Counted from the stretch's first letter, positions 44,291-64,000 are shown. The stretch: DNA of 64,000 bases from Vulcanimicrobiota bacterium (GCA_003135555.1 PLCF01000085.1:1-64000); one strand, 5' to 3'. Program-made: numbers and translations. The notes: a model not told the origin generated them from the letters alone.

Positions 44291-45127
44291 TCAGCGCACG
44301 ACGCGGGCGTCGGCGAGGTGAACGACCCGTTCGCGCCCCGCGACGTCGACGACGAGGCCGCCGTCGCGGTCCAATCGCAGCGCCGAGCCTTCGAGCACCG
44401 AGCCGTCGGCATCGAGCTGCAAGCGGTAGGGCGTACCGCGCAGCGCGGCGCGCTCTTCCCAGGCGCGCCCAACGTCGTTGGGACGATCGAGCACGTCGGC
44501 CAGCGCGTCCATCGCCGCGAGGATCCCCGCGAGTATCGCTTCACGCTCGGCGTGTAGCGCCGCGTCGGAGAGAAACGCCGGCGGCGGATCGATTTCGGCC
44601 AGCGTGCGTGCCTGCTCCGAGCCGGTTGCGGGCCGGCGCACGTTGAGCCCGATGCCGCAGCCGACGTGCGCGGTCGCGCCGAGCACGCGCGACGTGCACA
44701 AGATTCCCGCGGCCTTGCGAGAGGCGAGATCGAGGTCGTTGGGCCAGCGCAGATCCAGCCGCACGCCGCATCCTTCCTCGACGCCGTCGGCGACGGCCAA
44801 CGCGGTCCAAAACGGGACGCACCACAGCGCGTCGGTCGCCACCGCCGCCGGCAAGATGGTCGTGAACGTCAGCGCGCACCCGGCCGGCGCGTGCCAGCGC
44901 CGCCCGGACTTGCGGCCGCGCCCCGCCGTCTGAAACTCGGCGACCAACGTCGCACCGGCCGCCGACGGATCGCCCAGCAGCGCCGCCGCGTCGTCGTTGG
45001 TGCTGCCGGTCGTGCGTACGTAGCGGACCTCGGCGAGACGCGTGCCGCCGAGCGCAGCGCGCACGCGCGCGGCGTCCAGGAACCCCGACCCATCGCGTCC
45101 GCACGGAGGTGCGTCATCGTCCGGCAC
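44291..45127 (-). CDS. birA: Biotin--[acetyl-CoA-carboxylase] ligase (type I, no HTH); start uncertain
   Basis: TGSTND; AEFQTAGRGR; RWPNDL; KAAGIL; GIGLNV. Confidence 0.9.
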   Translation of the reverse strand: MPDDDAPPCGRDGSGFLDAARVRAALGGTRLAEVRYVRTTGSTNDDAAALLGDPSAAGATLVAEFQTAGRGRKSGRRWHAPAGCALTFTTILPAAVATDALWCVPFWTALAVADGVEEGCGVRLDLRWPNDLDLASRKAAGILCTSRVLGATAHVGCGIGLNVRRPATGSEQARTLAEIDPPPAFLSDAALHAEREAILAGILAAMDALADVLDRPNDVGRAWEERAALRGTPYRLQLDADGSVLEGSALRLDRDGGLVVDVAGRERVVHLADARVVR

Positions 45128-45143
45128 GTATAGCCCCTCCGCT

Positions 45144-45599
45144 ATGGCAGTCGAACGGACCTTGATTCTCGCCAAAGGAGACGCGCTCGTGCGCGGCCTC
45201 GTCGGCGAGATCCTCGCGCGCTACGAGCGGCGCGGCTACACGATCCTGGGACTCAAGCTCATGCAGGTCAGCCGGGATCAGGCGCAGCGCCACTACGCCG
45301 AGCACGAGGGGAAGCCGTTCTTCGCGGGCTTGGTCGACTACATCACCGCGACGCCGGTCGTCGCGCTGGTGGTCGAGGGCCACGACGCTATCGAAGGCTG
45401 CCGCGCAACCAACGGCGCGACGAATCCGATCAAGGCCACGCCGGGGACCGTTCGCGGCGACTTCGGGCAGACCGTCGGGCGCAATCTCGTCCACGCCTCG
45501 GACTCCCCCGCCGCAGCCGAGCGTGAGGTCGCGATCTTCTTTCACGACGCCGAGCTGTTCACGCGCGCGCACGCGCTCGCGGCCTGGCTCGCCGAGTAG
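45144..45599 (+). CDS. ndk: Nucleoside diphosphate kinase
   Basis: ERTL; HYAEHEGKPFF; GATNP; PGTVRGDF; RNLVHASDS. Confidence 0.97.
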   Translation: MAVERTLILAKGDALVRGLVGEILARYERRGYTILGLKLMQVSRDQAQRHYAEHEGKPFFAGLVDYITATPVVALVVEGHDAIEGCRATNGATNPIKATPGTVRGDFGQTVGRNLVHASDSPAAAEREVAIFFHDAELFTRAHALAAWLAE

Positions 45600-46937
<1,338 letters not shown>

Positions 46938-51230: not shown

Positions 51231-51659
51231 TTAGGCCGGCTGGGCCGCGGGCGGCTTGAGCGCGGTGCGGTAGCCCGCATAGACGGCGATCGCATAGAAC
51301 AGCACGTCCATGATGTTGAAGTCGGCGCGCAGCGCGTCTACGGCGAATGCGGGCCGGCGTGCTAACGCGAGCAGCACGACGGCGATCGGATAGTGCTCGT
51401 GCTGCGCGATCGTGACGCCCACGGCGCCCAGATTGCCGAGCACGCAACCCAAGAACGCGACAACGCCGGCGATGACGCCGTCGGCGCGTTCGCGCCCGCC
51501 GCTGAGCGTGCGCATCCCGAGGCCGGCCAAAAAGCCGACGCCCAGCGCCATGTAACCGATCTGATAGCTGGTCGCCGCGGTGATGGCGGCCCAGGCGATC
51601 GCGCCGACGATCGCGCCGGCGATTGCGGCGAGCGTGCCGGCCAGGAGTTTGGGGCTCAT
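51231..51659 (-). CDS. Small integral membrane protein
   Basis: Hydrophobic; YQIGYMALGVG; DVLFYAIAVYAGYR. Confidence 0.75.
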   Translation of the reverse strand: MSPKLLAGTLAAIAGAIVGAIAWAAITAATSYQIGYMALGVGFLAGLGMRTLSGGRERADGVIAGVVAFLGCVLGNLGAVGVTIAQHEHYPIAVVLLALARRPAFAVDALRADFNIMDVLFYAIAVYAGYRTALKPPAAQPA

Positions 51660-51719
51660 GAGGGTCTTTTCGAACGGTTGCTCTGCCGGCCCTTCCCAGC
51701 GTGCGGGTGACCTGAGCGG

Positions 51720-53120
51720 CTACGTCGTTGCCGGAACGGGCGCGTTGTCCTCGAGCAGCGCCGTGAGCTTCTTGCGACGCCAAAAACCGTAGTAGTAGAT
51801 CGTCTGGAAGATCAAGCCGCAGCAGAACGCGACGGGATAGGCCACCCACACGCCGCGCAAGCCGTATTTCGGCGCGAGCGCGTAGGCGACCGGGACCTCG
51901 ATCGCCCAGATGGCGATGATCGAGAGCAGCGTCGGCCACACCACGGTGCCGCTCGAGCGCATCAAGCCCGAGAGCACGCTGGTGGTTCCGAAGACCGCGT
52001 AGCTCCACAGCGTGATCGCGAGCAAGTCGTGCGCCGTCGCGATGACCTTGGCGTCGGTGACGAACAGGGTGAGGATCGCGTCGTTGAAGACGTAGACGAG
52101 CCCGATGAGGGCGCCGCAGATCACCCAGTTCAAGCTGATCCCGGCCCGGGCGATGCGCCGCAAGCGGTCGAAGCGCTTGGCCCCGATCGACTGCGCGCCG
52201 AAAATCGAGGATGCGATCCCGATCGAGATCGCCGGGAACTGCACGTACGACACGATCTGGTTCACCGCACCGTACGCCGCGGTCGCCGACGAGCCGAAGC
52301 GGTTGACCAGCGAGATGACGGCGATCTCGGCCAGCGATACCATGACCATTTGCAGGCCGGCGGGGATCCCGATGCGCACCAGCGCCGCCAACAGCTTTGG
52401 TTCGATGTTCATGTGGCGTACGATCGACATGTCCAGCGCGAGCGGGTTCTTCTCGGCCGCCAAGGCGATGAGCAGGTAGGCGAGACCGAAGACATTGGCC
52501 ACGATGTTGCCGACCGCCGCGCTCACGATCCCGAGCTGTGGCAGCCCGAACCAGCCGCGAATGAGCGCCGGCGTCAGGACGAGGATCAGTGCGGTGCTGA
52601 CGATGAGCGACAGGAACGGCGTCCGCGAGTCGCCGGTGCCGCGGACGAACGTCGTGTAGGCGAGGTAGACGAAGAGCAGCGGCAGCGCCAAGAACGTGAC
52701 GTGCGCGTAGGCGAGCGCATCGTCGAAGACGTCCAAGGGCGTGCCGATCAGGTGCAGCAGCGGCGTCAGAAAGAACCAGCTCGCCGCGCCGATCACCGCG
52801 CCCGCGACGAGCGCGACGGCGAGCGTCGTGCCGGCGACCGCCTTGAGCCGCTCCTCGTTGTGGGCGCCATAGGCTTGCCCGATCAGCACCGTGCTGCCGC
52901 TCGCGATCCCGATGAAGAACGCGATCATGAAGAAGAGGATCGGGAAAAGCGACGACGCGGCCGCGAGCGCGCCGACCCCGATGAGCCGCCCCAGGTAGAT
53001 GCTGTTGAGCGTCGCCGACGCCGACTGCAAAATGTTACTGAGCATCAGCGGGACGAGGAAGACCAGCATCGCCTGCCAGATCGGCCGGGAGTCGTCGAGG
53101 GCGAGGCGGCGCTGCTGCAT
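51720..53120 (-). CDS. MATE family efflux transporter
   Basis: PLMLSNILQ; RGTGDSRTP; RIGIPAGLQ; many TM segments. Confidence 0.93.
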   Translation of the reverse strand: MQQRRLALDDSRPIWQAMLVFLVPLMLSNILQSASATLNSIYLGRLIGVGALAAASSLFPILFFMIAFFIGIASGSTVLIGQAYGAHNEERLKAVAGTTLAVALVAGAVIGAASWFFLTPLLHLIGTPLDVFDDALAYAHVTFLALPLLFVYLAYTTFVRGTGDSRTPFLSLIVSTALILVLTPALIRGWFGLPQLGIVSAAVGNIVANVFGLAYLLIALAAEKNPLALDMSIVRHMNIEPKLLAALVRIGIPAGLQMVMVSLAEIAVISLVNRFGSSATAAYGAVNQIVSYVQFPAISIGIASSIFGAQSIGAKRFDRLRRIARAGISLNWVICGALIGLVYVFNDAILTLFVTDAKVIATAHDLLAITLWSYAVFGTTSVLSGLMRSSGTVVWPTLLSIIAIWAIEVPVAYALAPKYGLRGVWVAYPVAFCCGLIFQTIYYYGFWRRKKLTALLEDNAPVPATT

Positions 53121-53182
53121 CCGGGACAGTGTGCCCCATCCGGGGACACCTCTCCCGCGCGGCGAAACCACGTCCGCGCGGC

Positions 53183-53254
53183 GGGCGATTAGCTCAGCGG
53201 GAGAGCAGCTCCTTTACACGGAGAAGGTCGGCGGTTCGAATCCGTCATCGCCCA
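53183..53254 (+). tRNA. tRNA-Val (UAC); CCA not fully encoded
   Basis: GGGCGAT/ATCGCCC acceptor stem; CTCC-TT-TAC-AC-GGAG; GGTTCGAATCC. Confidence 0.95.
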
Positions 53255-53387
53255 CATCCGGCATCCGTCCTTGTCACATTGCGACACCCATACATCCGAA
53301 CATCCGAGTCGCAGACATGCGGCCATGCCGATAGGCGTGACATGCGGATATGCGGGCATGCGCACGTCGCGACATTGCGACATGAGT
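53254..53387. repeat. Degenerate 8-bp-period tandem repeat (consensus ~ACATSCGR) abutting the tRNA-Val 3' end
   Basis: acattgcg acacccat acatccga acatccga ... acatgcgg ccatgccg ... acatgcgg atatgcgg gcatgcgc acgtcgcg acattgcg acatgagt. Confidence 0.8.
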
Positions 53388-53446
53388 TTCATCTTGACGG
53401 CGTAACGGGCGCACATGCGCACCGATGTAAATGGCGCTGGCCTTTT

Positions 53447-54121
53447 CTATTTGCTCACTAGGACTCTCGTGAGGTCGAAGAAGCTGTCAGATGGAGCGCC
53501 GCCCGGATACGTCTGTCGCTCCTCGCCTTTTAAGCGCATCTCGGTGATGATGCCGTTCTGGATGGTAACCGCACCGTGTGAACGTCGTCTGATGGTTCCG
53601 CTCACCATCTGCGTTTCGACCTGCCCCATTTGCGACCACGATCCGGCGAACGACACGTCCAGGACGCACCGACGACTCTTCTCGTCGACGCTCGTCACAA
53701 CGACCTGGACTGTTCCCCGATCCCCGAACGTGCTCTGCACCACCGCACCAGACCACTTCGCACCCACCGAAAGGACCGCTGGCGGAGTGCCGAACATTTG
53801 CGCAGTGTAGCCTAACGGAGCGATGCCTTCCGTAACCGGGCCGTCGCCGGAAAGCAGCGTGAGCGTGTCGGTATTCTCGCGGAACTCCCGCGTAGTCTTG
53901 TGCCCTTCCGTGACTGCGTCGACCGAAAAGCGCAAGTTCGGTTGACTGTCGATTGGCTGCGGGAGAATTCTAACCGTCGTGTTGCTTACAATTGTGTGAT
54001 CGAACGGACCCGTGATCCGGCGCCTCGTTTGGAACTGCAGCACTTGGTTAGGTGCGACCTGCGGTACCAGCATCGTCGACGGTGTCGCAAGAGCGAAGAC
54101 GACTGCAGCAAGTCCGAGCAT
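53447..54121 (-). CDS. Secreted beta-strand-rich hypothetical protein
   Basis: N-terminal hydrophobic signal; GGAGAG RBS; LSVGAKWS motif. Confidence 0.65.
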   Translation of the reverse strand: MLGLAAVVFALATPSTMLVPQVAPNQVLQFQTRRRITGPFDHTIVSNTTVRILPQPIDSQPNLRFSVDAVTEGHKTTREFRENTDTLTLLSGDGPVTEGIAPLGYTAQMFGTPPAVLSVGAKWSGAVVQSTFGDRGTVQVVVTSVDEKSRRCVLDVSFAGSWSQMGQVETQMVSGTIRRRSHGAVTIQNGIITEMRLKGEERQTYPGGAPSDSFFDLTRVLVSK

Positions 54122-54182
54122 GCTAAGACAACTCTCCGTGAGACGGCAATGGGACTTGTGTCAAGTACGGACGCCACGAGAC

Positions 54183-54211
54183 GGGACCTCGGCGTTCGGA
54201 GCCGAGGTCCC
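54183..54211. terminator. 11-bp GC hairpin just downstream of the peptide gene (mRNA stabiliser or attenuator)
   Basis: GGGACCTCGGC-GTTCGGA-GCCGAGGTCCC; no T tract. Confidence 0.65.
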
Positions 54212-54217
54212 CGAGCC

Positions 54218-54445
54218 TCAGTTGCAACCGGGTGTGCAGTTGATGGTGTACGAGCAGTCCGCATACATCGTTTGCCTGCACGTCCAGCATTGGCCCGCAT
54301 CGTCCGTGTAGGTGTAGTTGTGAACGAACGGCCTCGTCTTGCAGCCGGTGCCACCGTCACACTGGGCCGACGCGGGTTGCGATAAGGCGAAGGCGCCAAA
54401 AGCAATCCCAAGGGCCAGGAACGATTTCAGAAAGTAGGACTTCAT
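54218..54445 (-). CDS. Secreted Cys-rich peptide (75 aa; 48-aa mature part with 7 Cys)
   Basis: RBS AAGGGTGA; MKSYFLKSFLALGIAFGAFALSQPASA|QCDGGTGCKTRPFVHNYTYTDDAGQCWTCRQTMYADCSYTINCTPGCN. Confidence 0.78.
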   Translation of the reverse strand: MKSYFLKSFLALGIAFGAFALSQPASAQCDGGTGCKTRPFVHNYTYTDDAGQCWTCRQTMYADCSYTINCTPGCN

Positions 54446-54668
54446 ACACTCACCCTTAATAGAGGCGCCTAGGAGGCGCTCGCAAGCTTGCGTCGTAGCC
54501 AATAGTCGCCGCGACGATGGCCAGATTGTGCCTTAATGAGCCAGTCCCTGCTTGCTTTCCCATAGGGAAAAACCGCGCGATGAGCTAACGGCGGGCTAAA
54601 ATTGTTCGAAACTGGCTCCAAGGAGTCGATTTCCGAAACGGTTACCCAAAAACGCTTAGGGTGAGGCG

Positions 54669-57062
54669 ATGAGGCCGATGTTCGCGAGCGCATGCGTCGA
54701 TTGGCTGATGTGTCGGCGGTGGCGCGCAGGCTTGGCACTCCTGCTCGCGGCGGTGTTTTGCGCGTCCGCGCTCGAAGTTGCGCGTGCTGCGCGAGGTTTG
54801 GTTGACGTACGTGTCCTCGTACGAGATGGTGCGACCGGTAAGCCGATTGCCGGTGCACTGATTCGCTTCGAGGCCAAGACCCGGAAGCTGCTCGGGCGCG
54901 CGGACCTCGACGGCGAGGCCCGATTTGTCAGCGTGCCGGCCGGCGACTACGATCTCCACGTCACCGCGCAGGACTTTCAAGATGCGCTCGTCGTCGCCCG
55001 CGTTGACGGCGAAGCGGACTTGACGTTGACGGTCGCGCTGAGAGCCGGATTGCCGCAGATCGGTTCGGTTTCCGCTCGTCGCGACACCGCCGTAGTCACG
55101 GTGTCGCGAGATGCTGCCTCCGCACGCCTGTTTCCGGATTTTGCCGATGTGCTCAACCGACTGGCCGACGCCTCGATTTCGGTTGACCAGTACGGGCGAC
55201 TTGGCGCCGTTTCGTTCGCAGGCAAGGACGCGTCGCTCTCCACGGTCACATTTGACGGCGTCGATCTCTCCGACCCAGTAGCCCGACACGCGATCGACCC
55301 CGATCTGATACAATCTGCCAGGGAAAGCGCGGCGTCGGCGACTCTGGACCTGTTCACGCTTGGGCCGACCCCATGGACCCAGTACGTCGCGGACGATGTA
55401 CTCAGCGGATATCACGGCGCGCGCACGAAGTCAACAGTCCAAACCACCGTCGGGAATGTCGGCGTCGTTGGCGAGTACGCATCGAGCTCGCAGCGAAGCG
55501 CGTTGTACGGCGCGCGCTATTTGGATTCCAGCGGGCTCGACTATGTTCACCGAGGTCGTTTCGCGAGCGATTCGGTGTTGCTGAAGGTGACTGCGCCTCT
55601 CGCGCAACGCGTCACGGCGGAGACGGAGTTTCTGTCCACGTCGTCACGGCAGCAGCCGTCCAGTCCGTATTTTTCTGGAGCGCTTCCAGCGGGAAGCGGC
55701 CCCGGGACCTTCAGTGATTCTTCCTCCACGATCGCGAGGGTCGGAATAACGGCAAATCCGGGCCACTTCTTGGTTCAATCGGGGCTTTCCGTGGTCAACA
55801 CGAACAATGTCACGAACGAACTGGCGCGATACAGCGCAGGGCAGCCCGACCCTCTGTACGCGCAAGTCCGTGGAAGACAAGTGCAGGCGAGCCTCGGCGT
55901 CGTCGACCTCGTGTCCGCTCGCGAAACGCTGAATCTGAATCTCTCCAGCATTGCGAACGACAACCACTTCACTACCGTTGTCCCGCGGTTTCAGCTAGCA
56001 TCACTCGATACTCGTGACTACACGCGCACGACGCGGCTTTCGATCCGTGACGCGCGCAGCTTCTCGTCAGCGCAGCGCCTCCTCTTCGGATTCGACGAGA
56101 GCTTCGACAATCACGGTAACGCGGGTCTGACCGCGACGGCTTCGTTCGACGTCCGAGTCGGCTCGGACGACTTCCGCCTTGGAGTCTCGCACGGAAGGGA
56201 CCTCGCAAGCCGGAGTTCGGCCTCAGCTTTCAGTGATCCACAATCCGCGTCGTACGATTGCGAGAGCGGAACGATCATTGTGGCCGGGCCCAATCAGCAG
56301 CCAACCGCTCCACGGGCCTCGGATCTGCGCCTTGATTGGGTTCACAAAGGTCGTCGTTCAGAGCTCAATGTCGAGGTTGCGCAAACGCTCTACAGCGACG
56401 TCTCCCTGTCGAGCGCCTACGTTCCGATCTCGTCCATTCCGGTCTCGATAGTACCTGCGGGATATGTCGCATCCCTGCTTGGCGCCTTCACCCAGATCGG
56501 CGGTTGCCCAAGCAGCCTTGCGGCACCAAGTCTGTACGTCACCGAGAACATCAGCGGCGCGCAGACGCGTTATGTCACGGCTCGAGTTATCGCTACCACA
56601 CACGTAGGCAGCCGCCTACAGGTGCAGTGGGCGGCGGAAGTGCAACGCGCGACTCTGGTCAGCGCGCCAGCGGTCTTGCTTGGAATCGGGTCGCCATACG
56701 TGCCAGGGGGCCAACTACCAGGTGTGCCGCTGTTTCACGCGACCGCGACGGCCGATCTGCCTTGGCAGAATCGTCGCACGGAGAGCATTCTGAGCTTAGG
56801 CTTTGTTAGCGGCAACAACGAACGCCATCTACCGGCTTATGTACAACTCACTGCCGGGGTCGCACACCGTTTGAGCGAGAACGTAGATGCGTTCCTCATT
56901 TTCGCGAACGCCGGGCACGCCTACGTGGGCCTATTCAACTCCCCGTTGTATGCCCAAGGGGTCCCGACAATCGGCGGCGGAACCCTACGGACCTTCGCCG
57001 CACCCCTCGTGCAGCCGAACGTGCACTTGAACGTCCGAGTAAAGGTCCGCCACGGCGACTGA
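54669..57062 (+). CDS. TonB-dependent-receptor-like outer-membrane protein with carboxypeptidase-regulatory-like N-terminal domain
   Basis: VRDGATGKPIAGA...VPAGDYDLHVTA; plug-like DVLNRL...TVTFDGV; beta-barrel-like C-terminus (NNERHLPAY). Confidence 0.72.
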   Translation: MRPMFASACVDWLMCRRWRAGLALLLAAVFCASALEVARAARGLVDVRVLVRDGATGKPIAGALIRFEAKTRKLLGRADLDGEARFVSVPAGDYDLHVTAQDFQDALVVARVDGEADLTLTVALRAGLPQIGSVSARRDTAVVTVSRDAASARLFPDFADVLNRLADASISVDQYGRLGAVSFAGKDASLSTVTFDGVDLSDPVARHAIDPDLIQSARESAASATLDLFTLGPTPWTQYVADDVLSGYHGARTKSTVQTTVGNVGVVGEYASSSQRSALYGARYLDSSGLDYVHRGRFASDSVLLKVTAPLAQRVTAETEFLSTSSRQQPSSPYFSGALPAGSGPGTFSDSSSTIARVGITANPGHFLVQSGLSVVNTNNVTNELARYSAGQPDPLYAQVRGRQVQASLGVVDLVSARETLNLNLSSIANDNHFTTVVPRFQLASLDTRDYTRTTRLSIRDARSFSSAQRLLFGFDESFDNHGNAGLTATASFDVRVGSDDFRLGVSHGRDLASRSSASAFSDPQSASYDCESGTIIVAGPNQQPTAPRASDLRLDWVHKGRRSELNVEVAQTLYSDVSLSSAYVPISSIPVSIVPAGYVASLLGAFTQIGGCPSSLAAPSLYVTENISGAQTRYVTARVIATTHVGSRLQVQWAAEVQRATLVSAPAVLLGIGSPYVPGGQLPGVPLFHATATADLPWQNRRTESILSLGFVSGNNERHLPAYVQLTAGVAHRLSENVDAFLIFANAGHAYVGLFNSPLYAQGVPTIGGGTLRTFAAPLVQPNVHLNVRVKVRHGD

Positions 57063-57175
57063 TTGCAGCAAACTCAGAGCATCTTCTTCCGGGGCTTGCG
57101 CAGGTCCGGTTGCCTGGTCGTCCCAGTTCGTCGCTTGGCGGCGAATAGCTGAGCCTGAAACGTTAAGTCCCAGCG

Positions 57176-57243
57176 GGTTACCGCGATTTCGCTGTCGACT
57201 CGGCGGGTTAGGATGATTTGACGGTTATTGTGATAGACCAACA
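57176..57243. repeat. Junction/end motif copy 1
   Basis: GGTTACCGCGATTTCG-N14-GGTTAGGATGATTTGACGGTTATTGTGATAGACCAACA. Confidence 0.88.
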
Positions 57244-57495
57244 TCCGGCACATGTTGCTATTGCGGCATGTGAGACCGGAGACGATGGGACGGGACTGAC
57301 CACGAACGTCCCTCCATTGCTGCATCCGACGCCGGCATACGTGGCGGAATAGCCGCCATGGGACTTGCTCTGCGCGCTAACGTGGTGCAGACATCCGTGA
57401 GAGTTTCCAAATAGAAATGAAGCCGAATCCAGGAGGGCCAGGCCGCGCCAAGGCGGATTCGAGGGAAGGCCTCGCCCGTTTTTGAATCACACGCC

Positions 57496-58410
57496 ATGCG
57501 CCGATGCTTTGTTCATGTTGGCACGCATAAGACCGGAACGACGTCCGTACAGGCCTTCCTGGCGATGAATCACAGAGCGTTGCTTTCGGCCGGGATTCTC
57601 GCGCCGTTGACCGGGCGCCCGAGTCACTTACCCGACTACCCAAACTTCGGTCATCACAACATTGCATGGGAATTGAACGAGGACCCTCGTTTCCGGCCCG
57701 AGTCGGGAACGTTGAACGAGCTCGTATCGGAGATAGCGCGTGTCGCGTCGCACACAGTAGTTTTGAGTTCGGAGGATTTTGAATACCTTCATGCAAAGCC
57801 GGCGGCCTTGCATGAGCTGGCTCGCGCGTTGTGCGATATTGGTTACGGAATTGAATTCATCGCGTACCTGCGTCCACAAGGTGAATACGCGCAATCGCTA
57901 TATCTTACGTTACTCCTGTTCGGCCTTAACCTGAGTTTTTCGGACTTTCTCGATATAGTACTTCAGCGTGGCGCCTTTACGTTTTCCGAACGTTGGATCT
58001 TCCAATTCGACTACACAAAACTGCTCGATGCTCTTGCTGATGTGGCCGGGCCTTCCGGCATGTCCGTGCGGCGCTATCGCCAGGACGCTGAAGCTAGTCT
58101 CCTACTCGCCGAGTTCGCTTCAATTGTGCAGACCCCAAGCGGAAAGGCGGCGTTCGACCAATTTAACCTGCCCGACCGAATGAATCGTAGAATATCGCTG
58201 GAAACCGCTTGCGAACTCTTAGTAGATAACCAAGATCCGTCGCACCATCGCGAAATACGGGAGGCGGCATCGCCGGGTTCATTTTGGAAAGCTGAGGACG
58301 GAGCCCGACTTCTCGCGCGATTTAGCGCGGAAAATGATGATCTCGCCAAAAAATATGCACTCCACCTTCCAGTCCTTGGTTCTGCCTTTAGCAATGAGCG
58401 TGCGCCTTAG
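57496..58410 (+). CDS. Sulfotransferase-like P-loop protein
   Basis: HVGTHKTGTTSVQ; VLSSEDF; YLRPQ...SLY; N-terminal pattern typical of sulfotransferase-fold proteins. Confidence 0.72.
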   Translation: MRRCFVHVGTHKTGTTSVQAFLAMNHRALLSAGILAPLTGRPSHLPDYPNFGHHNIAWELNEDPRFRPESGTLNELVSEIARVASHTVVLSSEDFEYLHAKPAALHELARALCDIGYGIEFIAYLRPQGEYAQSLYLTLLLFGLNLSFSDFLDIVLQRGAFTFSERWIFQFDYTKLLDALADVAGPSGMSVRRYRQDAEASLLLAEFASIVQTPSGKAAFDQFNLPDRMNRRISLETACELLVDNQDPSHHREIREAASPGSFWKAEDGARLLARFSAENDDLAKKYALHLPVLGSAFSNERAP

Positions 58411-59147
58411 CGAGGTTCTTTCCTCCAGTATACGGCGGTCCAATCAACGGTCTCTAGCGGCTCGCGAATCGCGTTTCTGTCCCGATAGTCCTCGACCGCT
58501 TTCGCGCACGAAGGAATCGCGCCGTAATCGTCGACGATACAATACCCTCCGGCACTCACTTTAGGGTACAGTGATTCGAGCGCAATCATCGTTGACTCAT
58601 ACATGTCTCCGTCTAGCCGCAGAAGCGCAAGTTGGCCCATTGGCGCGTCTGGAAGGGTGTCGCGAAACCAGCCTTCGAGAAACCGAACCCGCTCGTCGAG
58701 CAGGCCGTACCGATCAAAAGCCCGTTGCACCTCACCTAGCGGCACAGCAAGTGCTTCAAAGGTCTGCAGCGAATCGCCGGCATCCTCGGGATAACGAATC
58801 GCGTCGGGCGCCGGCAGTCCTGCAAAGGAATCTGCGACCCAAACATACCGGTCGGAAATGCCGTACGCTTGTAAAATGCCGCGCATGAGAATTGCCGCCC
58901 CACCTCGCCAAACGCCGGTCTCGATAAAGTCACCAGGGACTCCCCGACGCAGAGTATCTCGAGCGCAGAATTCCAAGTTATCGAGGCGTTTTGGGCCAAT
59001 CATGGTGTGAGCGCGAACGGGCCAGTGCGGGCCCCTAGGCGTACCGGTTACTAAGACTTCATGGGCGTCATAAATGATATCGAGCAACGATCGTTTCAGG
59101 AGATCGATGTAGAGGGTTACGAGTCGTTCATCGTCGGTGTAGCCCAT
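58407..59147 (-). CDS. TylF/MycF/NovP-family O-methyltransferase
   Basis: AHTMIG; VPGDFIETGVWRGG; VADSFAGLP; GWFRDTLP; LRLDGDMYEST; IVDDY. Confidence 0.93.
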   Translation of the reverse strand: MGYTDDERLVTLYIDLLKRSLLDIIYDAHEVLVTGTPRGPHWPVRAHTMIGPKRLDNLEFCARDTLRRGVPGDFIETGVWRGGAAILMRGILQAYGISDRYVWVADSFAGLPAPDAIRYPEDAGDSLQTFEALAVPLGEVQRAFDRYGLLDERVRFLEGWFRDTLPDAPMGQLALLRLDGDMYESTMIALESLYPKVSAGGYCIVDDYGAIPSCAKAVEDYRDRNAIREPLETVDWTAVYWRKEPR

Positions 59148-59269
59148 GGAGTCCCCGCGTATCGGTTCGCGTGAAATAGTGGATCACAATTCTGCGTTGG
59201 CCCCGAAGAGGGGTGCTGCCATCCGCCCTGCAGAGGTCAGCCTCATTGATTGTGGCCCACGATCGGGCA

Positions 59270-59337
59270 GGTTAGCGCGATTTCGCCAACGAGCATCTCG
59301 GTTAGGGTGATTTGCGGATTATTGTGATAGACCAACA
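59270..59337. repeat. Junction/end motif copy 2
   Basis: GGTTAGCGCGATTTCG-N14-GGTTAGGGTGATTTGCGGATTATTGTGATAGACCAACA. Confidence 0.88.
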
Positions 59338-59820
59338 TTACGTATCCGAGCATGCACATGCTTTATCCGGCGCGACGCAAACCTGGAAACCATCCGTCGC
59401 GGCGTCGAACTACGAACAGCCTCGTCCCTGAACGCTTTACCGTCGGCGAAATGCGGCTGACGGCGCGCTAGGGGCGACCACCGCAAGGCCGTAATTCGTT
59501 CTATCCAGAAAACTTTTTCGATGCTGCTCCAGTTCGTAATGGGCACGCTAGCCCGTTGAGGCAACGCGCACTTCAGGGTGCAACTATCAGGTCTTCGAAA
59601 ACAGCAGACGTGCGCGCTGCTTTATCACGATAACCCTCGTCGCGGTGACTTCGGGCGCTCATGTCGTGCGCCCGCGAAGTCGAACGCTCCTTAGCCGAAG
59701 GCCATTCGATGCACTTTCTGCATGAGGGCCGCATTGTCGAGCTACCGGCTTGCGCCGCGGGTCACCCGGCGGGCTGAGCTAAAGGCTCGACGAGCCGTCG
59801 GGCCGGTTTGGACACCGTTG

Positions 59821-59889
59821 GGTTCGGGCGATTTCGAGCTCGGCCCGCAGGGTTCGGGGGATTTGACCCCTTATCGTGATAGACCAACA
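59821..59889. repeat. Junction/end motif copy 3
   Basis: GGTTCGGGCGATTTCG-N14-GGTTCGGGGGATTTGACCCCTTATCGTGATAGACCAACA. Confidence 0.88.
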
Positions 59890-59932
59890 TCCGAGTTGCG
59901 CAGTGCGATCTTAGAGGGGTGTAGATACGCTT

Positions 59933-61417
59933 ATGGGGTACGCCGGGCCGATCACCAACATCATCGTCGTGATGCTCGAGAACCGCTCGTACGACAACGT
60001 TCTGGGGATGCTGTACGCGCCCGGGAACCCCGCACCGTACGACAGCGCGCCGGCCGGCCAGCTGACGCTGGACGGCCTCCCACCGGACGCGTCCAACGTG
60101 GACCCCGTCACGGGTCTCGCCCTTAACGCTTGGGGTGGTCCCGGCGACTCGCCGACGATCCCCGAGACCGACCCTGGCGAACCGTTCTACGACATGGCGC
60201 AACAGATCCAGGGCGCCGCATTCAAAGAGGACGACAACCCATATTCGTCGAGTGCGACCGCGCCCATGGGCGGCTTCGTGGCGAACTACCGCGCGCAGTT
60301 CGCGGGCGGGCAGACGGCTAGCTCCGCCGGGATCGGGAACGTGCAGAACGCCGTACGCGACGTCATGCATGTCTACACGCCCTGGCTCATGCCGGTAACG
60401 GCATACCTCGCGCGCAACTTCATGGTCTGCGATGCGTGGTTTGCTTCGGCGCCGACGCAGACGTTCGCGAACCGGATGTTCGCGCACTGCGCCACTCCCG
60501 GCGGGTCGAGTACCGAAAGCTTTCTCGACGACTCGCAGTATCTGTTGACCTGGGCGGCAGGCGGGTTTGGGGCGAACAACGTGTTCGCCCAACTCGACGC
60601 CGTGCTCGGCGTGGGTGCTAAGCCGAACTGGAAGGTCTACTTTCACGACTACTCGATCAGCATGGGCCTAGTAAAGTACGTCAACGCGGCCGCCACGAGT
60701 GCGAGCAACATCAATGTTGCCAGCTACGATCAGTCGGACTATCCCGATACGTCGTCCCTGTGGCCCGTCGGCGCGTGGCCCAACACGTTTCTGGCCGACC
60801 TCGCGAACGGGACGTCACCGCCGTACTCGTTCGTCGAGCCGCGCTACAGCAACAGCTATCAGGATCTGCTCGATTCGTCGAAGCACGCCGTTCCCGGCCT
60901 GGCACCGAATTCGAATCATCCGGGGCTGGCGAACTTCACGACGAACGCGCTCCCGAACAACCCGCCGATCAGCGTCGTCAACGGTGAGCTGTTTCTGCTC
61001 GGCCTGTACTCCGCACTGCTCGCGAGTCCGCTGTGGAAAAGCTCGCTGCTCGTCATCCTCTACGACGAGCACGGCGGATTGTACGACCACGTGTATCCGC
61101 CGAGCGTCGCGGCGGCGGCGAGCAGCGCGATCCCGCCCGCGTCGTCTTCCTATGGAAACTTCGCCTTCAACATCTACGGTGGGCGCGTGCCCGCGATCAT
61201 CGTCTCGCCGTTCGTGACGGCCGGGAGCAGGCTGGTCTCGTCGGGTGCCCCGTTCGACCACACGTCGATCATCCGAACCGTCTGGGACTGCTTCAATCTG
61301 GACCAAGGCACGCACGGCGCCGCTTCCATCAACGCGTGGGATCTAAACGCGCCATCGATTCTGACCAAGTGCTCCACGACGATCGTCAACAACCCGCCAA
61401 AACCGCCATCGCTCTGA
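59933..61417 (+). CDS. Phosphoesterase/phospholipase C family (alkaline phosphatase superfamily)
   Basis: IIVVMLENRSYDNVLG; CDAWFAS...TFANR; YDEHGGLYDHV; GGRVPAIIVSPF; FDHTSII. Confidence 0.92.
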   Translation: MGYAGPITNIIVVMLENRSYDNVLGMLYAPGNPAPYDSAPAGQLTLDGLPPDASNVDPVTGLALNAWGGPGDSPTIPETDPGEPFYDMAQQIQGAAFKEDDNPYSSSATAPMGGFVANYRAQFAGGQTASSAGIGNVQNAVRDVMHVYTPWLMPVTAYLARNFMVCDAWFASAPTQTFANRMFAHCATPGGSSTESFLDDSQYLLTWAAGGFGANNVFAQLDAVLGVGAKPNWKVYFHDYSISMGLVKYVNAAATSASNINVASYDQSDYPDTSSLWPVGAWPNTFLADLANGTSPPYSFVEPRYSNSYQDLLDSSKHAVPGLAPNSNHPGLANFTTNALPNNPPISVVNGELFLLGLYSALLASPLWKSSLLVILYDEHGGLYDHVYPPSVAAAASSAIPPASSSYGNFAFNIYGGRVPAIIVSPFVTAGSRLVSSGAPFDHTSIIRTVWDCFNLDQGTHGAASINAWDLNAPSILTKCSTTIVNNPPKPPSL

Positions 61418-61479
61418 CGCCGCACCGGAGGCTCCACCGGTTTCGATCATCGCAACGATTTGCGGGGGCCGCAGCTCGA

Positions 61480-62031
61480 CTACGTTTTCTTGCGCGTATA
61501 TTTGATCTCCACGCCCTTCCACTCCGGGACCGTGCCGAAGCTCAAGTAGCTCGACGCAATCATCGCGTTGGCCGAGATGGGTCCGATGACGGTGCGCTGG
61601 TGCCACGTGTCGGCGCCGATCGGGTAGTCCGCCTTCAGCTCGAACTGCTTCGTCGTCGCGTCGTAGCTGCCGGTCTCGGCGATGCGACTGGTGTTGGTGG
61701 TCGCGATGCGCGTAGCTTCGTACTGGTGCGTAGACGTATTGAAGCCGGTCCACGCGAGGGTCGTGAACGGCGTGCCGTTCAGCACGCCTTCGATCTTCTC
61801 TTCGACGAAGAGCCCGTCGAACAGCGGCCGGATCGTCGACGTGCCCTTGGTCAAAAGACCCGGGCCGCCGGGCCGAAACCAGAACGTCATTTCGACGTCC
61901 CAGGTGCCGACCATCGCGGCGAGGCGCGCATGCTCGGGGTCGGCCGGTGGGGCGGCGTTGGCGGTCGTCGCCGTCGCGATCGCGGTCGCGGCGACGAGTG
62001 CGGCAATCAACCAGACACGTGGACGGTTCAT
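61480..62031 (-). CDS. DUF1579-like secreted protein
   Basis: Signal peptide; PEHARLAAMVGTWDV; GLFVEE; EIKYTR. Confidence 0.78.
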   Translation of the reverse strand: MNRPRVWLIAALVAATAIATATTANAAPPADPEHARLAAMVGTWDVEMTFWFRPGGPGLLTKGTSTIRPLFDGLFVEEKIEGVLNGTPFTTLAWTGFNTSTHQYEATRIATTNTSRIAETGSYDATTKQFELKADYPIGADTWHQRTVIGPISANAMIASSYLSFGTVPEWKGVEIKYTRKKT

Positions 62032-62157
62032 CGGACAGCAACTCCTCAGGCCACACGAGCATGGGCGTCGACAAAGCTCTCGACGTACGCGTTTTCAACC
62101 GGCGTGCCCTGGCGCAGGGGCAAGGGAACCAGCGGCGTCCTCGATTAAGAGCCTGCC

Positions 62158-63933
62158 ATGAGGCGCGTTGCCTGGCGTCCGGTGCTGCTGGCGATTTGCG
62201 CGCTCGTGGCGCTCGTCCAAGTAGCATCCGTGCTCGACGTGATCGGGATGGGCGGCGCGCCGCCGTGGTGGGGCCGGCTGGGAGCTAGGATCGATGGCGC
62301 CGCGGGACCGGCGCATGTCGTGGTTCGCTCCGTCGAACCCGGGGGCCCGGCTGACCGTGCGGGCCTTCGTCGAGGCGATCTCATCGACATGCGCGCAAAC
62401 TCAGTTGTCGACCGTTTGGCGACGTTGAGTTTAGAGGCGCCGCTCAATGGGCGGCCGCTCGTCCTCGCGGTGCACCGGGGCTCGCTGCAAAAAGAGATTT
62501 CGCTCGTACCGGAGCCGGTTCCGGCTCAGCGATATTGGGACTTCTTGCTCGGTTCGCTGGGGAGCCTCTGGCTGCTGCTCTTTGCAGCTCTGATCGCGTG
62601 GCGCCGCGCCGACGTTCCCCAGATGCGACTGCTCTCGACGTGGTTAACCGTTTTTGTTCTCGTCGGCGCGACGACCGGTTTTGCGGCACCCTGGTCGTGG
62701 CCGTATGTCCTCTTCGGCGTCTTGAGCAGCCTAGCTTTGGCGTTGGTGCTCGCGCTGTGGGCGGCGTTCGCGAGCTGCTTCGCCCAGCCGCTCTCGCGGC
62801 CCCGTCGCATCGCGCAATGGCTGTGTTACGTGTTCGTCGCGATCTCGATCGCGAACTCGGGATTTTGGATTGCCGAAACGATCGACCCGCAGTTCCATCC
62901 GCTCCCGCCGACCCATGGGTTTGGGTGGCTCATTGCGTTTTTGGGCGCACTTGTGATGGCAGTGGTCTGCGGGGTGCTCGCAATTGCCGCATCCCGCGGA
63001 GTGGAGCGCCAGCGAGCGGTGTGGACGATCCTACCGCTAGCGGCCATCTATTGCTACTACACGGTGTTTGCGATTGCAACCTCGTCGTCGTCGTCATCCG
63101 CCGATTCCGATTTCTGGAGCATCGCGGCCAACCTGGTGATCCTCGTCGCTCCGCTCGCGCTGACGTACGCTGCACTCAGCCGCCGGCTGATCGACGTCGG
63201 TTTCTTCCTGAACCGCGCCGCCGTCTTCACCGTCGTTTCGACGATCGTGATCGGGACATTCGTGCTGGTCGAATGGGCTGCGAGCGAGTGGTTCGCACGT
63301 ACCGGTCGCACCGCCGGTACCGTCATCAGCATGGGCGTGGCGCTGGGCCTTGGATTCTCGATGCGCTACATCCACCGCTACGCCGATCGCTTCGTCGACC
63401 GCGTCTTCTTTCGAAAGCGGCATGAGGACGAAGCCGCGCTACGCCGCTTCGCGCACGAATCTTCCTATATCACCGACCGCTCCGTCTTGCTGCAGCGGGC
63501 GGTTCGTGAGGTCAAGGCACACACCGACGCCGCCGATGCGACGATCCTGGTCCAAAATGGAGAAGCGGTGTTTACGTCGGTCGCACAAACCGGCGCTGCT
63601 CTCACGAGCGCTAACGAGAACGACCCCGGCATCCTAGCCCTGCGCGCTTGGCACAAGCCGGTCGACCTGGGGTCGCTCGAGGATTCAGTGCTGCGCGGCG
63701 AGTTCGCTTTTCCGATGGTTTCGCGCGGCACGCTCGTGGGGGTCCTCATCTGTGAGGCAAAGCGCAACGGCGAAAGCTACGCACCCGATGAATCGGCGGC
63801 ACTGCTTGCGCTCGCACACGGCGTAGGCACGGCACTCGACGTCCTTTCCGCTCAACAAGACCGCCCCAACGAAGTCGTGCTCCGCGAGCTAGCCGAATTG
63901 CGTGAGGACGTGAAACGGATGATGCACAAGTGA
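62158..63933 (+). CDS. Membrane sensor-like protein: PDZ + multiple TM + GAF, no output domain
   Basis: VEPGGPADRAGLRRGD (PDZ); RRLIDVGFFLNRA; FPMVSRGTLVGVL...GESYAPDE. Confidence 0.8.
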   Translation: MRRVAWRPVLLAICALVALVQVASVLDVIGMGGAPPWWGRLGARIDGAAGPAHVVVRSVEPGGPADRAGLRRGDLIDMRANSVVDRLATLSLEAPLNGRPLVLAVHRGSLQKEISLVPEPVPAQRYWDFLLGSLGSLWLLLFAALIAWRRADVPQMRLLSTWLTVFVLVGATTGFAAPWSWPYVLFGVLSSLALALVLALWAAFASCFAQPLSRPRRIAQWLCYVFVAISIANSGFWIAETIDPQFHPLPPTHGFGWLIAFLGALVMAVVCGVLAIAASRGVERQRAVWTILPLAAIYCYYTVFAIATSSSSSSADSDFWSIAANLVILVAPLALTYAALSRRLIDVGFFLNRAAVFTVVSTIVIGTFVLVEWAASEWFARTGRTAGTVISMGVALGLGFSMRYIHRYADRFVDRVFFRKRHEDEAALRRFAHESSYITDRSVLLQRAVREVKAHTDAADATILVQNGEAVFTSVAQTGAALTSANENDPGILALRAWHKPVDLGSLEDSVLRGEFAFPMVSRGTLVGVLICEAKRNGESYAPDESAALLALAHGVGTALDVLSAQQDRPNEVVLRELAELREDVKRMMHK

Positions 63934-64000
63934 GGCGAAGCCGCATCCGCGGGATGACCGCTCATACCGCGGTCGTCCAAGCTGAGGGATTCTCGACGAG

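Follow-up and report, generated by a model that had tools for sequence, protein, structure and literature searches.

Enzyme-less units stacked behind a tRNA or tmRNA gene are known in outline. In Streptococcus thermophilus, integrase-less cis-mobilisable units share their att core with an integrase-bearing integrative and conjugative element of the same species, as for ICESt1/ICESt3, and a related element would supply the enzyme that moves them. Tn7, which generates a 5-bp duplication, encodes the tns genes and carries inverted sites in its ends, may accrete in tandem at attTn7. Here we describe a comparable array behind the tRNA-Val(TAC) gene of an uncultured Vulcanimicrobiota bacterium from peat (GCA_003135555.1), composed of cargo modules separated by a repeated box. 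It lies in PLCF01000085.1:1-64000, a stretch of 64,000 nucleotides called here the window, which forms the first 64 kb of the 285-kb contig C58 in a metagenome-assembled genome (MAG) of 3.57 Mb, 84% complete. The array resembles the ICESt1/ICESt3 accretions in its tandem integrase-less units at one site, and differs from them in having no integrase-bearing relative in the collections searched. With Tn7 it shares a fixed orientation and distance behind a conserved gene, TG...CA termini and several related sites per end, whereas its flanking repeat is 9 bp long and its sub-repeats are direct.

Two other systems come close. In the part of the published account on which we draw, the ssrA islands of Dehalococcoides are stacked downstream of one small-RNA gene, each island is bordered by a repeat, 20 bp of the ssrA 3′ end, together with a conserved motif ending in CCA, 16 islands carry a CcrB-like serine integrase beside attL, and the authors invoke cis-mobilisable elements and accretion (PMC3146451). 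Stacked units, a repeat with a CCA-ending motif, variable cargo and the existence of units without an integration module are common to those islands, as that part presents them, and to our array; the latter is distinguished by a 9-bp host-specific repeat outside the tRNA, by the lack of any recombinase and by inverted termini with sub-terminal repeats. The Prochlorococcus tycheposons, according to the section of their description used here, carry tyrosine recombinases, are flanked by partial tRNA copies, and occur in cultures heterogeneous for excised forms and tandem junctions (10.1101/2020.12.28.424599). As in that description, the present elements are tRNA-anchored, with successive integrations pushing older elements inward and with degenerate remnants; unlike the tycheposons, they show neither a tyrosine recombinase nor flanking partial tRNA copies. 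Three traits set this family apart: its exact repeat is host sequence lying beyond the tRNA, its ends are inverted termini accompanied by sub-terminal repeats, and no enzyme-bearing member is present in the collections searched.

The array and its variation between strains

The original prediction, made from the window alone, held that repeated site-specific insertion beside tRNA-Val builds the array and that the modules encode no recombinase. The sequence facts on which it was based (the tRNA junction, ACATCCGGCA after both the tRNA and junction 1, and an 11-mer common to 53299 and 59886) were all confirmed, and its two proposals agree with elements of relatives bounded by the same ends and with negative Pfam and PHROGs scans of the cargo. 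Whatever the enzyme, we hold it highly probable that the array was built through serial site-specific insertion of discrete units.

At its 3′ end the tRNA gene reads ...CCCA|CATCCGGCA. Behind it, a box of ~70 bp is present in three copies of the same orientation (57173-57240, 59265-59334 and 59818-59886), and no other copy exists in the 3.57-Mb genome. The box is composed of two GGTTN5GATTT[CG] sub-repeats 30 bp apart, followed by 4-5 bp and the 20-mer TTATYGTGATAGACCA. In the form TTATYGTGATAGACCAACAT, the 20-mer occurs three times in the window, always on the + strand (ends at 57244, 59338 and 59890), and in none of 100 shuffles. Genome-wide, its 15-nt core has three copies, all at the array; six of the seven matches to the sub-repeat pattern are at the junctions, and box plus sub-repeat clusters are limited to the three array sites. 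The motif is therefore not genome-wide, one of the tests that the original prediction had set itself. The three boxes are 67-90% alike and group with different foreign types. Scored with sequence-only covariance models, model R1 for right ends and model R2 for left ends, the features are the following.

53183..53254 (end 53254/5), + strand: tRNA-Val(TAC), the anchor (ARAGORN; Rfam RF00005, 65.4 bits)
53254..53263, + strand: repeated target ACATCCGGCA, first of two copies (the last A of the tRNA and 9 bp), from the sequence and from a joint in peat sample X4 (below) with 10 letters fitting both sides
53264..53385, + strand: putative divergent left end of module 1, the 'octamer array', with a CTTGTCAC-type terminus, one TAGGCGTGACATG sub-repeat and short tandem duplications
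57173..57240, + strand: right end 1 (R1), two sub-repeats and terminus ...TTATTGTGATAGACCA (model R1, 66.8 bits, E 1.1e-19)
57241..57250, + strand: second copy of ACATCCGGCA, bounding with 53254-53263 a 3987-bp unit missing in X4
59265..59334, + strand: right end 2 (R2; model R1, 64.2 bits), closest to ends of the type found in relative G002 (57/69 identical)
59610..59664, + strand: the window's sole canonical left end (TGCTTTATCACGATAACCC..GGTGACTT), with GTGCGCGC before it (model R2, 30.1 bits, E 2.9e-8; E 1.1e-6 in the genome search)
59818..59886, + strand: right end 3 (R3; model R1, 58.8 bits)
59887..59896, + strand: flank after R3, ACATCCGAGT, which with the preceding A forms the 11-mer AACATCCGAGT

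Read with the key provided by the family, the window would open with the tRNA and one target copy; module 1 closed by R1, a second target copy and module 2 closed by R2 come next; and ~270 bp of decayed sequence lead to the canonical left end, R3, ACATCCGAGT and 'module 4'. The left end at 59610-59664 and R3 compose a ~280-bp unit devoid of cargo, in a place which had been described as a third module without credible gene and which is not empty in this sense. 'Module 4', also proposed as a unit, finds no right end to close it within the next 24 kb and is part of a variable, lower-GC stretch reaching ~68.0-68.5 kb of the contig, outside the window. The octamer array at 53264-53385, where the end models give no match, may be the left end of module 1; its ACATTGCGACA has two copies in the genome, both there, and is unique to this genome among 80 relatives. 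The 11-mer AACATCCGAGT has exactly two genome copies, one in the octamer array (53299-53309) and one at 59886.

To these features may be added the variation seen in Logan contigs (not reads) of four other peat metagenomes, aligned to positions 51500-64000. Samples X2 and X3 each contain one contig of 8628 nt that aligns with 53229-61843 and differs from it in 62 letters, which shows that the array is no assembly artefact and occurs in other samples. In X4, a contig joins 53253 directly to 57241, skipping the 3987 bp of module 1, with 10 letters shared by both sides. Depth is 36.7 at this joint, against 7-11 on the contigs of module 1 and ~30-43 from module 2 onward. Joint and depth together point to a closely related, more abundant strain with the order tRNA, ACATCCGGCA, module 2, module 1 being present or absent exactly at the repeat. 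The breakpoints thus coincide with the motif, as had been anticipated. Compared with the window, X2 and X3 have one extra GACATGCG unit (at window position 53313) and 6 extra letters exactly at 57240-57241, after R1; indels in the peat contigs also fall exactly at junction repeats. A loose end in X3 places a left end directly behind tRNA-Val in other strains, and X2 and X3 hold another right-end variant. Other joints in the peat contigs (52825 to 61967, 59212 to 61966 and more), whose shorter side has 20-26 letters and whose sides share none, were set aside as repeat or foreign-organism artefacts. Samples X7-X9, with small shares of the sequence words, were left out of account.

The locus also varies among relatives, all of them, like the present genome, known as MAGs. 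The pair formed by a MatE gene and tRNA-Val is kept in 44/44 genomes of the genus, and divergence begins directly past the last tRNA base in every one examined, including those without element ends. When the DNA downstream of tRNA-Val was compared for 20 relatives, our 53.3-68.4 kb found no match in any of them, and the ~15 kb behind the tRNA are therefore strain-specific here. In 13 of the 20, DNA matching our 68.5, 71.35, 76.26 or 79.1 kb onward resumes 0.3-14 kb behind the tRNA; the other seven show no match beyond the tRNA in the DNA compared. The region is thus not carried by relatives as one invariant block.

Insertions ended by the box lie behind tRNA-Val in G002 (1.7 kb), G009 (2.0 kb), G015 (6.7 kb), G017 (9.1 kb) and G023 (21.4 kb). 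Both end models match at the tRNA-Val locus only, in 8 of the 44 genus genomes (G000, G002, G008, G009, G015, G017, G023 and G033). They give nothing better than E 0.005 in 77 other relatives, and 0 matches in 150 further genomes of the phylum from 71 genera. Right-end pattern scans of GTDB species genomes and JGI metagenomes yielded three extra metagenome contigs: in L091, tRNA-Val and a 1.9-kb element are followed by a left end belonging to a second element; L097 shows a right end separated from a left end by 9 bp; and in L085 a right end is accompanied by at least 10 kb of cargo. Tandem junctions, in which 8-9 bp separate a right end from the next left end, are present in L091, L097 and G002. 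The left end stands 8-9 bp past tRNA-Val in G002, G009, G015, G017, G023, G033 and L091. Orientation is the same in 7/8 genomes; in G008, the right end is inverted and the spacer contains a GCGCGC palindrome. A search of 80 relatives with a 15-mer including ACAT gave just one-mismatch matches, without boxes and no commoner than a reversed control; this search was over-specific because ACAT is host flank.

Two other kinds of change were seen around the locus. Eight genus genomes (G015, G012, G005, G035, G006, G039, G001 and G018) carry an insert of 1-3 kb on the upstream side, between MatE and tRNA-Val, which in G015 (L114:10676-13649) holds a 582-aa receptor-like gene with CarboxypepD_reg and Plug. 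On C58 at ~71350-77920, the blocks 71.35-76.2 and 76.27-77.9 kb are in opposite order in G027, G029 and G014 and in the same order in G017, which marks a second rearrangement point near the island, outside the window.

Element ends and flanking repeats

Mean column identity is 77% for right ends from 10 places and 72% for left ends from 8 places. In the left end, TGCTTTATCACGGTAAG comes 8-9 bp past the tRNA and is followed by two sub-repeats, spaced by 30 bp and matching those of the right end in type and orientation; an inverted motif copy follows ~150-165 bp into the left end, the whole of which measures ~95-170 bp. It is seen in relatives and once in the window. The 'ACATCCG-type left arm' of the original prediction is really the 9-10 bp target repeated at each junction. 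The left terminus TGCTTTATCAC... is an imperfect inverted copy of the right terminus ...GTGATAGACCA (12/16 positions, by eye on the consensus), and the element reads TG...CA. Both ends also contain sub-terminal repeats of the GGTTAGGGTGATTTG type, similar to the terminal site (GGTTAnnGTGAT). If a right end were joined to a left end, the junction would span ~250 bp and look attP-like, with inverted 16-bp sites around 8-9 bp and direct arm repeats. Moreover, the last 11 nt of tRNA-Val (GTCATCGCCCA) match the right terminus (GTGATAGACCA) at 8/11 positions.

A 33-bp palindrome at C66:102462-102494 (L143) was rejected as a relative of the core, its likeness being due to chance. It lies 35-70 bp upstream of a gene and is found as a single copy, with at most 3 changes, in 19/44 genus genomes. 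The gene behind it is taken as sufB from its N-terminal sequence only, and the palindrome is probably the operator of an Fe-S cluster regulator.

The short sequence that separates the tRNA from the left terminus, 8-10 bp long and most consistently 9, is repeated past the right terminus of the same element. The two copies agree at 9/9 positions for our module 1 and for G009, 8/8 for G002, 8/9 for G023 and G015, 6/9 for G017, and 7/8 plus one indel for L091. The exact repeat starts at or past the last tRNA base and is therefore not a copy of the tRNA 3′ end. Short extra target copies stand at junctions and differ between samples. Over 71 nt, G002, L085 and L097 have right ends of 96-99% identity, and the 9-mers that flank them agree at 1-3/9 positions; similarly, the left ends of L091 and L097 are 93% identical with spacers agreeing at 3/8 by count. 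The L097 spacer equals the native flank of the empty relative G034, and the right flanks of G023 and G015 continue into the Fpg-type glycosylase gene which follows the tRNA in empty relatives. By this comparison the 9-mers look like native host sequence and not like a part of the element. Since they vary with the host beside near-identical ends, they are unlikely to be the overlap inside an attP, a shared sequence that would need a new version in each host.

Search for an enzyme and proposed mechanism of insertion

Pfam scans covered the cargo of our modules with the next 13 kb, of G017, G023, G015, L091 and L097, the main ORFs (open reading frames) of G002 and G009 and, in part, G033 and L085, and PHROGs scans covered G017 and G023. 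No integrase, serine recombinase or transposase was found in the cargo of these elements, from eight genomes and the three metagenome contigs. Since the units hold no recombinase, any enzyme would have to act in trans. Genome-wide, our MAG encodes two Xer-like tyrosine recombinases, two integrases on an island of contig C69 and one broken small serine recombinase; its matches to PF00589 are on contigs C9, C55 and C69, none being on C58. G017 has just two Xer-like tyrosine recombinases. IMG/VR, scanned for right ends and for right ends joined to left ends, gave nothing beyond one chance match, and PLSDB and the phage collection gave no match. With this genome 84% and G017 72% complete, such absence is no proof.

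Several candidates were dismissed. The C69 integrases (448 and 428 aa, with an HTH_17 gene) do not qualify as a shared helper: no end-model match exists on C69, and no close homologue in G002, G008, G015, G017 or G023. The island itself (C69:1-11300, L068) is unrelated; it runs from the contig edge and holds the two phage-type integrases together with the HTH_17 gene, which is excisionase-like, and a SocA/Panacea antitoxin. Two genes of the island resemble cargo of the G023 element. The serine recombinase (C64:660-1310, resolvase type) is small and split by a frameshift. The LuxR-TPR protein (P0001, P0002) belongs to a paralogue family present in 42/44 genomes and was accordingly discarded as enzyme or specific partner. 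Proteins without family beside the ends have no PDB sequence match, and the protein beside the left end of G023, considered as a recombinase, is ApeA/HEPN-like by Atlas and hence cargo. Upstream of the tRNA lie MatE, TPM, LemA, GT2 and other genes. A 408-aa ORF found there is without family and not recombinase-like; a 542-aa ORF at window 45114-46742 (- strand), also without family match, is rich in R, D, A and V, as expected when a high-GC gene is translated in antisense, and is unlikely to be a real protein.

The reading that we favour, with a probability of roughly 0.55, is that non-autonomous cassettes are inserted one after another, at a specific site and in a specific orientation, by an enzyme provided in trans that duplicates 9 bp of the target. 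This enzyme would insert a cassette at the first 9 bp past the tRNA, nearly always in one orientation, and a staggered cut of transposase type would leave those 9 bp on both sides of the cassette as a target-site duplication. The newcomer would enter beside the tRNA, or beside a resident right end, which the tRNA 3′ end resembles. The enzyme may mistake either of them for its own end and place the left end 9 bp away; such a role of the tRNA end, as a pseudo-end guiding insertion, is suggested by its 8/11 likeness to the right terminus. Older cassettes would then be pushed outward and decay, yielding the order tRNA, 9 bp, cassette, 9 bp, cassette. TG...CA termini, sub-repeats like the terminal site and small, sample-variable target copies at the junctions all fit transposon ends. 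Among the traits of a DDE-type transposon with terminal inverted repeats, the inverted termini (12/16) and a host-derived 9-bp duplication were observed, and an autonomous copy with transposase was not found in the collections searched. On balance, we lean towards target duplications rather than a shared recombination core as the nature of the flanking repeats. More speculatively, and with clear reserve, these elements might represent an undescribed kind: enzyme-less cassettes with multi-site ends, mobilised by a trans enzyme with 9-bp duplication at the 3′ boundary of tRNA-Val, perhaps via mimicry of the tRNA end. The outcome would be integron-like, an array of defence and accessory genes that is anchored at a tRNA and varies between strains, and the chemistry would be of transposition type.

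Several observations weigh against transposition. A single site behind a tRNA, a single orientation and a right end mimicking the tRNA 3′ end are the classic signature of an integrase. The two sub-terminal repeats point the same way in left and right ends, a layout closer to the arms of an integrase attachment site than to a symmetric transposon. Neither rve (PF00665) nor IS256-type, IS4-type or Cas1 proteins were matched in this genome and G017, both MAGs being incomplete, and no autonomous copy with these ends exists in the 44 genus genomes, the three metagenome contigs, IMG/VR, PLSDB or the phage collection. By the end-model scan of the window, modules 1 and 2 are without canonical left end, that of module 2 being unrecognisable; module 1 nonetheless acts as a unit, since it is absent as such in X4. 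The shorter side of the X4 joint has only 25 letters, in contigs and not reads, and the single repeat copy in the module-1-free form is compatible with transposition as well as with an integrase. It is possible, if doubtful, that a tyrosine-type integrase from elsewhere (helper element, phage or host) recombines tRNA-Val with an attP whose right and left arms enclose a core (C, 8-9-bp overlap, C′), and that integrase-less cis-mobilisable elements have been stacked by accretion. The ~250-bp junction would provide such an attP, with its two inverted 16-bp sites flanking 8-9 bp, its direct arm repeats and a right core half-site like the tRNA 3′ end (8/11). The single site and the common orientation in 7/8 genomes, with GCGCGC in the spacer of the inverted G008 case, would also be accounted for, and the G009 element derives, by deletion, from an element of the G017 type. 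Integrase-less members are on record in tandem arrays, as described in the parts of the two reports considered here (PMC3146451; 10.1101/2020.12.28.424599). This explanation meets a difficulty in the exact repeat, which lies outside the tRNA and differs with each host, so that near-identical ends (right 96-99%, left 93%) border unrelated 9-mers. Heterology-tolerant integrases, such as those of Tn916-type elements, leave unlike flanks and not repeats. In heterobivalent integrases arm and core sites differ, a pattern unlike the present sub-repeats, which resemble the terminal site (GGTTAnnGTGAT). Finally, no family member carries an integrase, G017 has just its two Xer-like enzymes, and the C69 integrases are without close homologue in the five element-bearing genomes compared.

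The other explanations are less probable than the two above. We find it improbable that there is no dedicated mobility and that the ends are old, vertically inherited borders of a hypervariable locus whose cargo is swapped by homologous recombination or transformation, the right ends resulting from segmental duplication. The tRNA-Val flank is indeed a breakpoint in all genus genomes examined, even without ends, and the ends diverge about as much as host genes do (76-93% vs 75-85%). On the other hand, ends occur in just 8/44 genomes and each element has matching 9-bp repeats; the three right ends of this genome, 67-90% alike and grouping with different foreign types, are not recent duplicates, module 1 is missing exactly at the repeat, and there are places where 9 bp join a right end to a left end. 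The original prediction had offered, as an alternative, eroded Tn7-like elements accreted at an attTn7-like site. Its idea of transposon-like elements accreting at one site is near the mechanism that we favour, and insertion behind a conserved gene in fixed orientation, TG...CA termini, multi-site ends and tandem stacking speak for it. Membership in the Tn7 group itself appears very improbable, given a repeat of 8-10 bp, most consistently 9 and not 5, sub-repeats not inverted between the ends, and no rve-type (TnsB-like) gene in this genome, in G017 or in any element (TnsA, TnsC and TniQ not being searched individually). A role of the boxes as operators or promoters shared by co-regulated genes, or as a structured RNA, is hardly credible. 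R1 and R3 do stand upstream of + strand genes, by 252 and 43 bp, whereas no gene follows R2, the boxes are limited to this locus, and in relatives they bound insertions. No promoter-like or terminator-like site and no Rfam match was found at the boxes, and they do not fold better than shuffles (z -0.63, +0.20 and +0.50; one reverse strand -0.33).

Three known systems were rejected. The comparison with integrons, also made at the outset, stands as an analogy only: as there, enzyme-less cargo units lie beside a fixed entry point with new units proximal, whereas C58 has no intI, the boxes have no attC-like folding, flanking repeats are present, and modules 1 and 2 are multi-gene units of 3 and 2 genes on both strands. 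A casposon is excluded by the absence of Cas1 (PF01867, 0/5 element-bearing genomes) and by a repeat of 9 and not 14-15 bp. Xer-dependent elements (IMEX, pdif modules) do not correspond to a core with TTAT on the outer side of both half-sites, which is not dif-like; no dif-like site was found in this genome for comparison. Xer-like genes are present, and a host enzyme of this type might still be used.

Cargo of the modules and meaning of the array

The genes carried by the modules of the window and by 'module 4' are given below.

53447..57062, both strands: module 1 cargo, a 224-aa protein (-), a 75-aa Cys-rich peptide at 54218-54445 (-) and a 797-aa protein at 54669-57062 (+)
57496..59147, both strands: module 2 cargo, a 304-aa protein (+) and a TylF-family O-methyltransferase at 58407-59147 (-; Pfam)
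59933..64000, both strands: 'module 4', Phosphoesterase (+), DUF1579 (-) and a PDZ+GAF membrane protein (+), all by Pfam

The gene content first proposed was borne out by Pfam for TylF, Phosphoesterase, DUF1579 and PDZ+GAF, and less so for two others. The 797-aa outer-membrane-type protein of module 1, earlier called TonB-dependent receptor-like, matches CarboxypepD_reg above the cut-off, its match to Plug being sub-threshold. The 304-aa 'sulfotransferase-like' protein has no Pfam or PDB sequence match, and the name follows from a predicted fold alone, a lead at the level of the fold. GC content is 0.56-0.64 in the modules (0.605 in module 1, 0.559 in module 2) vs 0.679 for the genome.

Cargo otherwise varies from one element to the next. 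In relatives, it includes a PD-Lambda-3_B/Ymh protein (G017), an RHS toxin (G015), a non-ribosomal peptide synthetase (G033) and an Imm11-like protein (G002). G023 carries an ApeA/HEPN-like protein, a Shedu/effector-like nuclease domain, SocA and HNH, and L085 an nSTAND3/PDC-S73 NTPase. When cargo ORFs were compared all against all by BLASTP, the ~540-aa TPR-LuxR regulator was the only whole gene found in two elements; the remaining matches are fragments, namely a truncated Ymh (G009/G017), a 176-aa ORF (G023/L085) and short pieces. The truncated Ymh gene that the G009 element keeps is 95% identical to that of G017 over 231 nt, which argues that small elements arise from larger ones through deletion. 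The ~540-aa TPR + LuxR-HTH regulators are expanded throughout the genus, with up to 14 matches per genome and copies in 42/44 genomes; our genome has its own at C58:109931-111478 and C90:7615-9150. The G009 element (L045, reverse strand) also contains, at ~1766-1815 of the oriented locus, a stretch on the opposite strand which by eye resembles a further tRNA gene, of which the 3′ half is kept, and which may be the relic of an earlier site.

In comparable stacks the enzyme is usually inferred from an integrase-bearing relative, and here none exists in any collection searched. If the proposed mechanism is true, Vulcanimicrobiota, a phylum with almost no genetics, would possess a site- and orientation-specific, target-duplicating insertion system. 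Through it, a single chromosomal address would receive defence systems (ApeA-like, PD-Lambda-3-like, STAND NTPase and Shedu-like nuclease), an RHS toxin and metabolic genes. Concrete substrates and primers for tests are offered by the ~280-bp cargo-free unit and by the exact presence or absence of module 1 from one peat sample to another, and the tRNA-Val site could serve as a natural landing pad.

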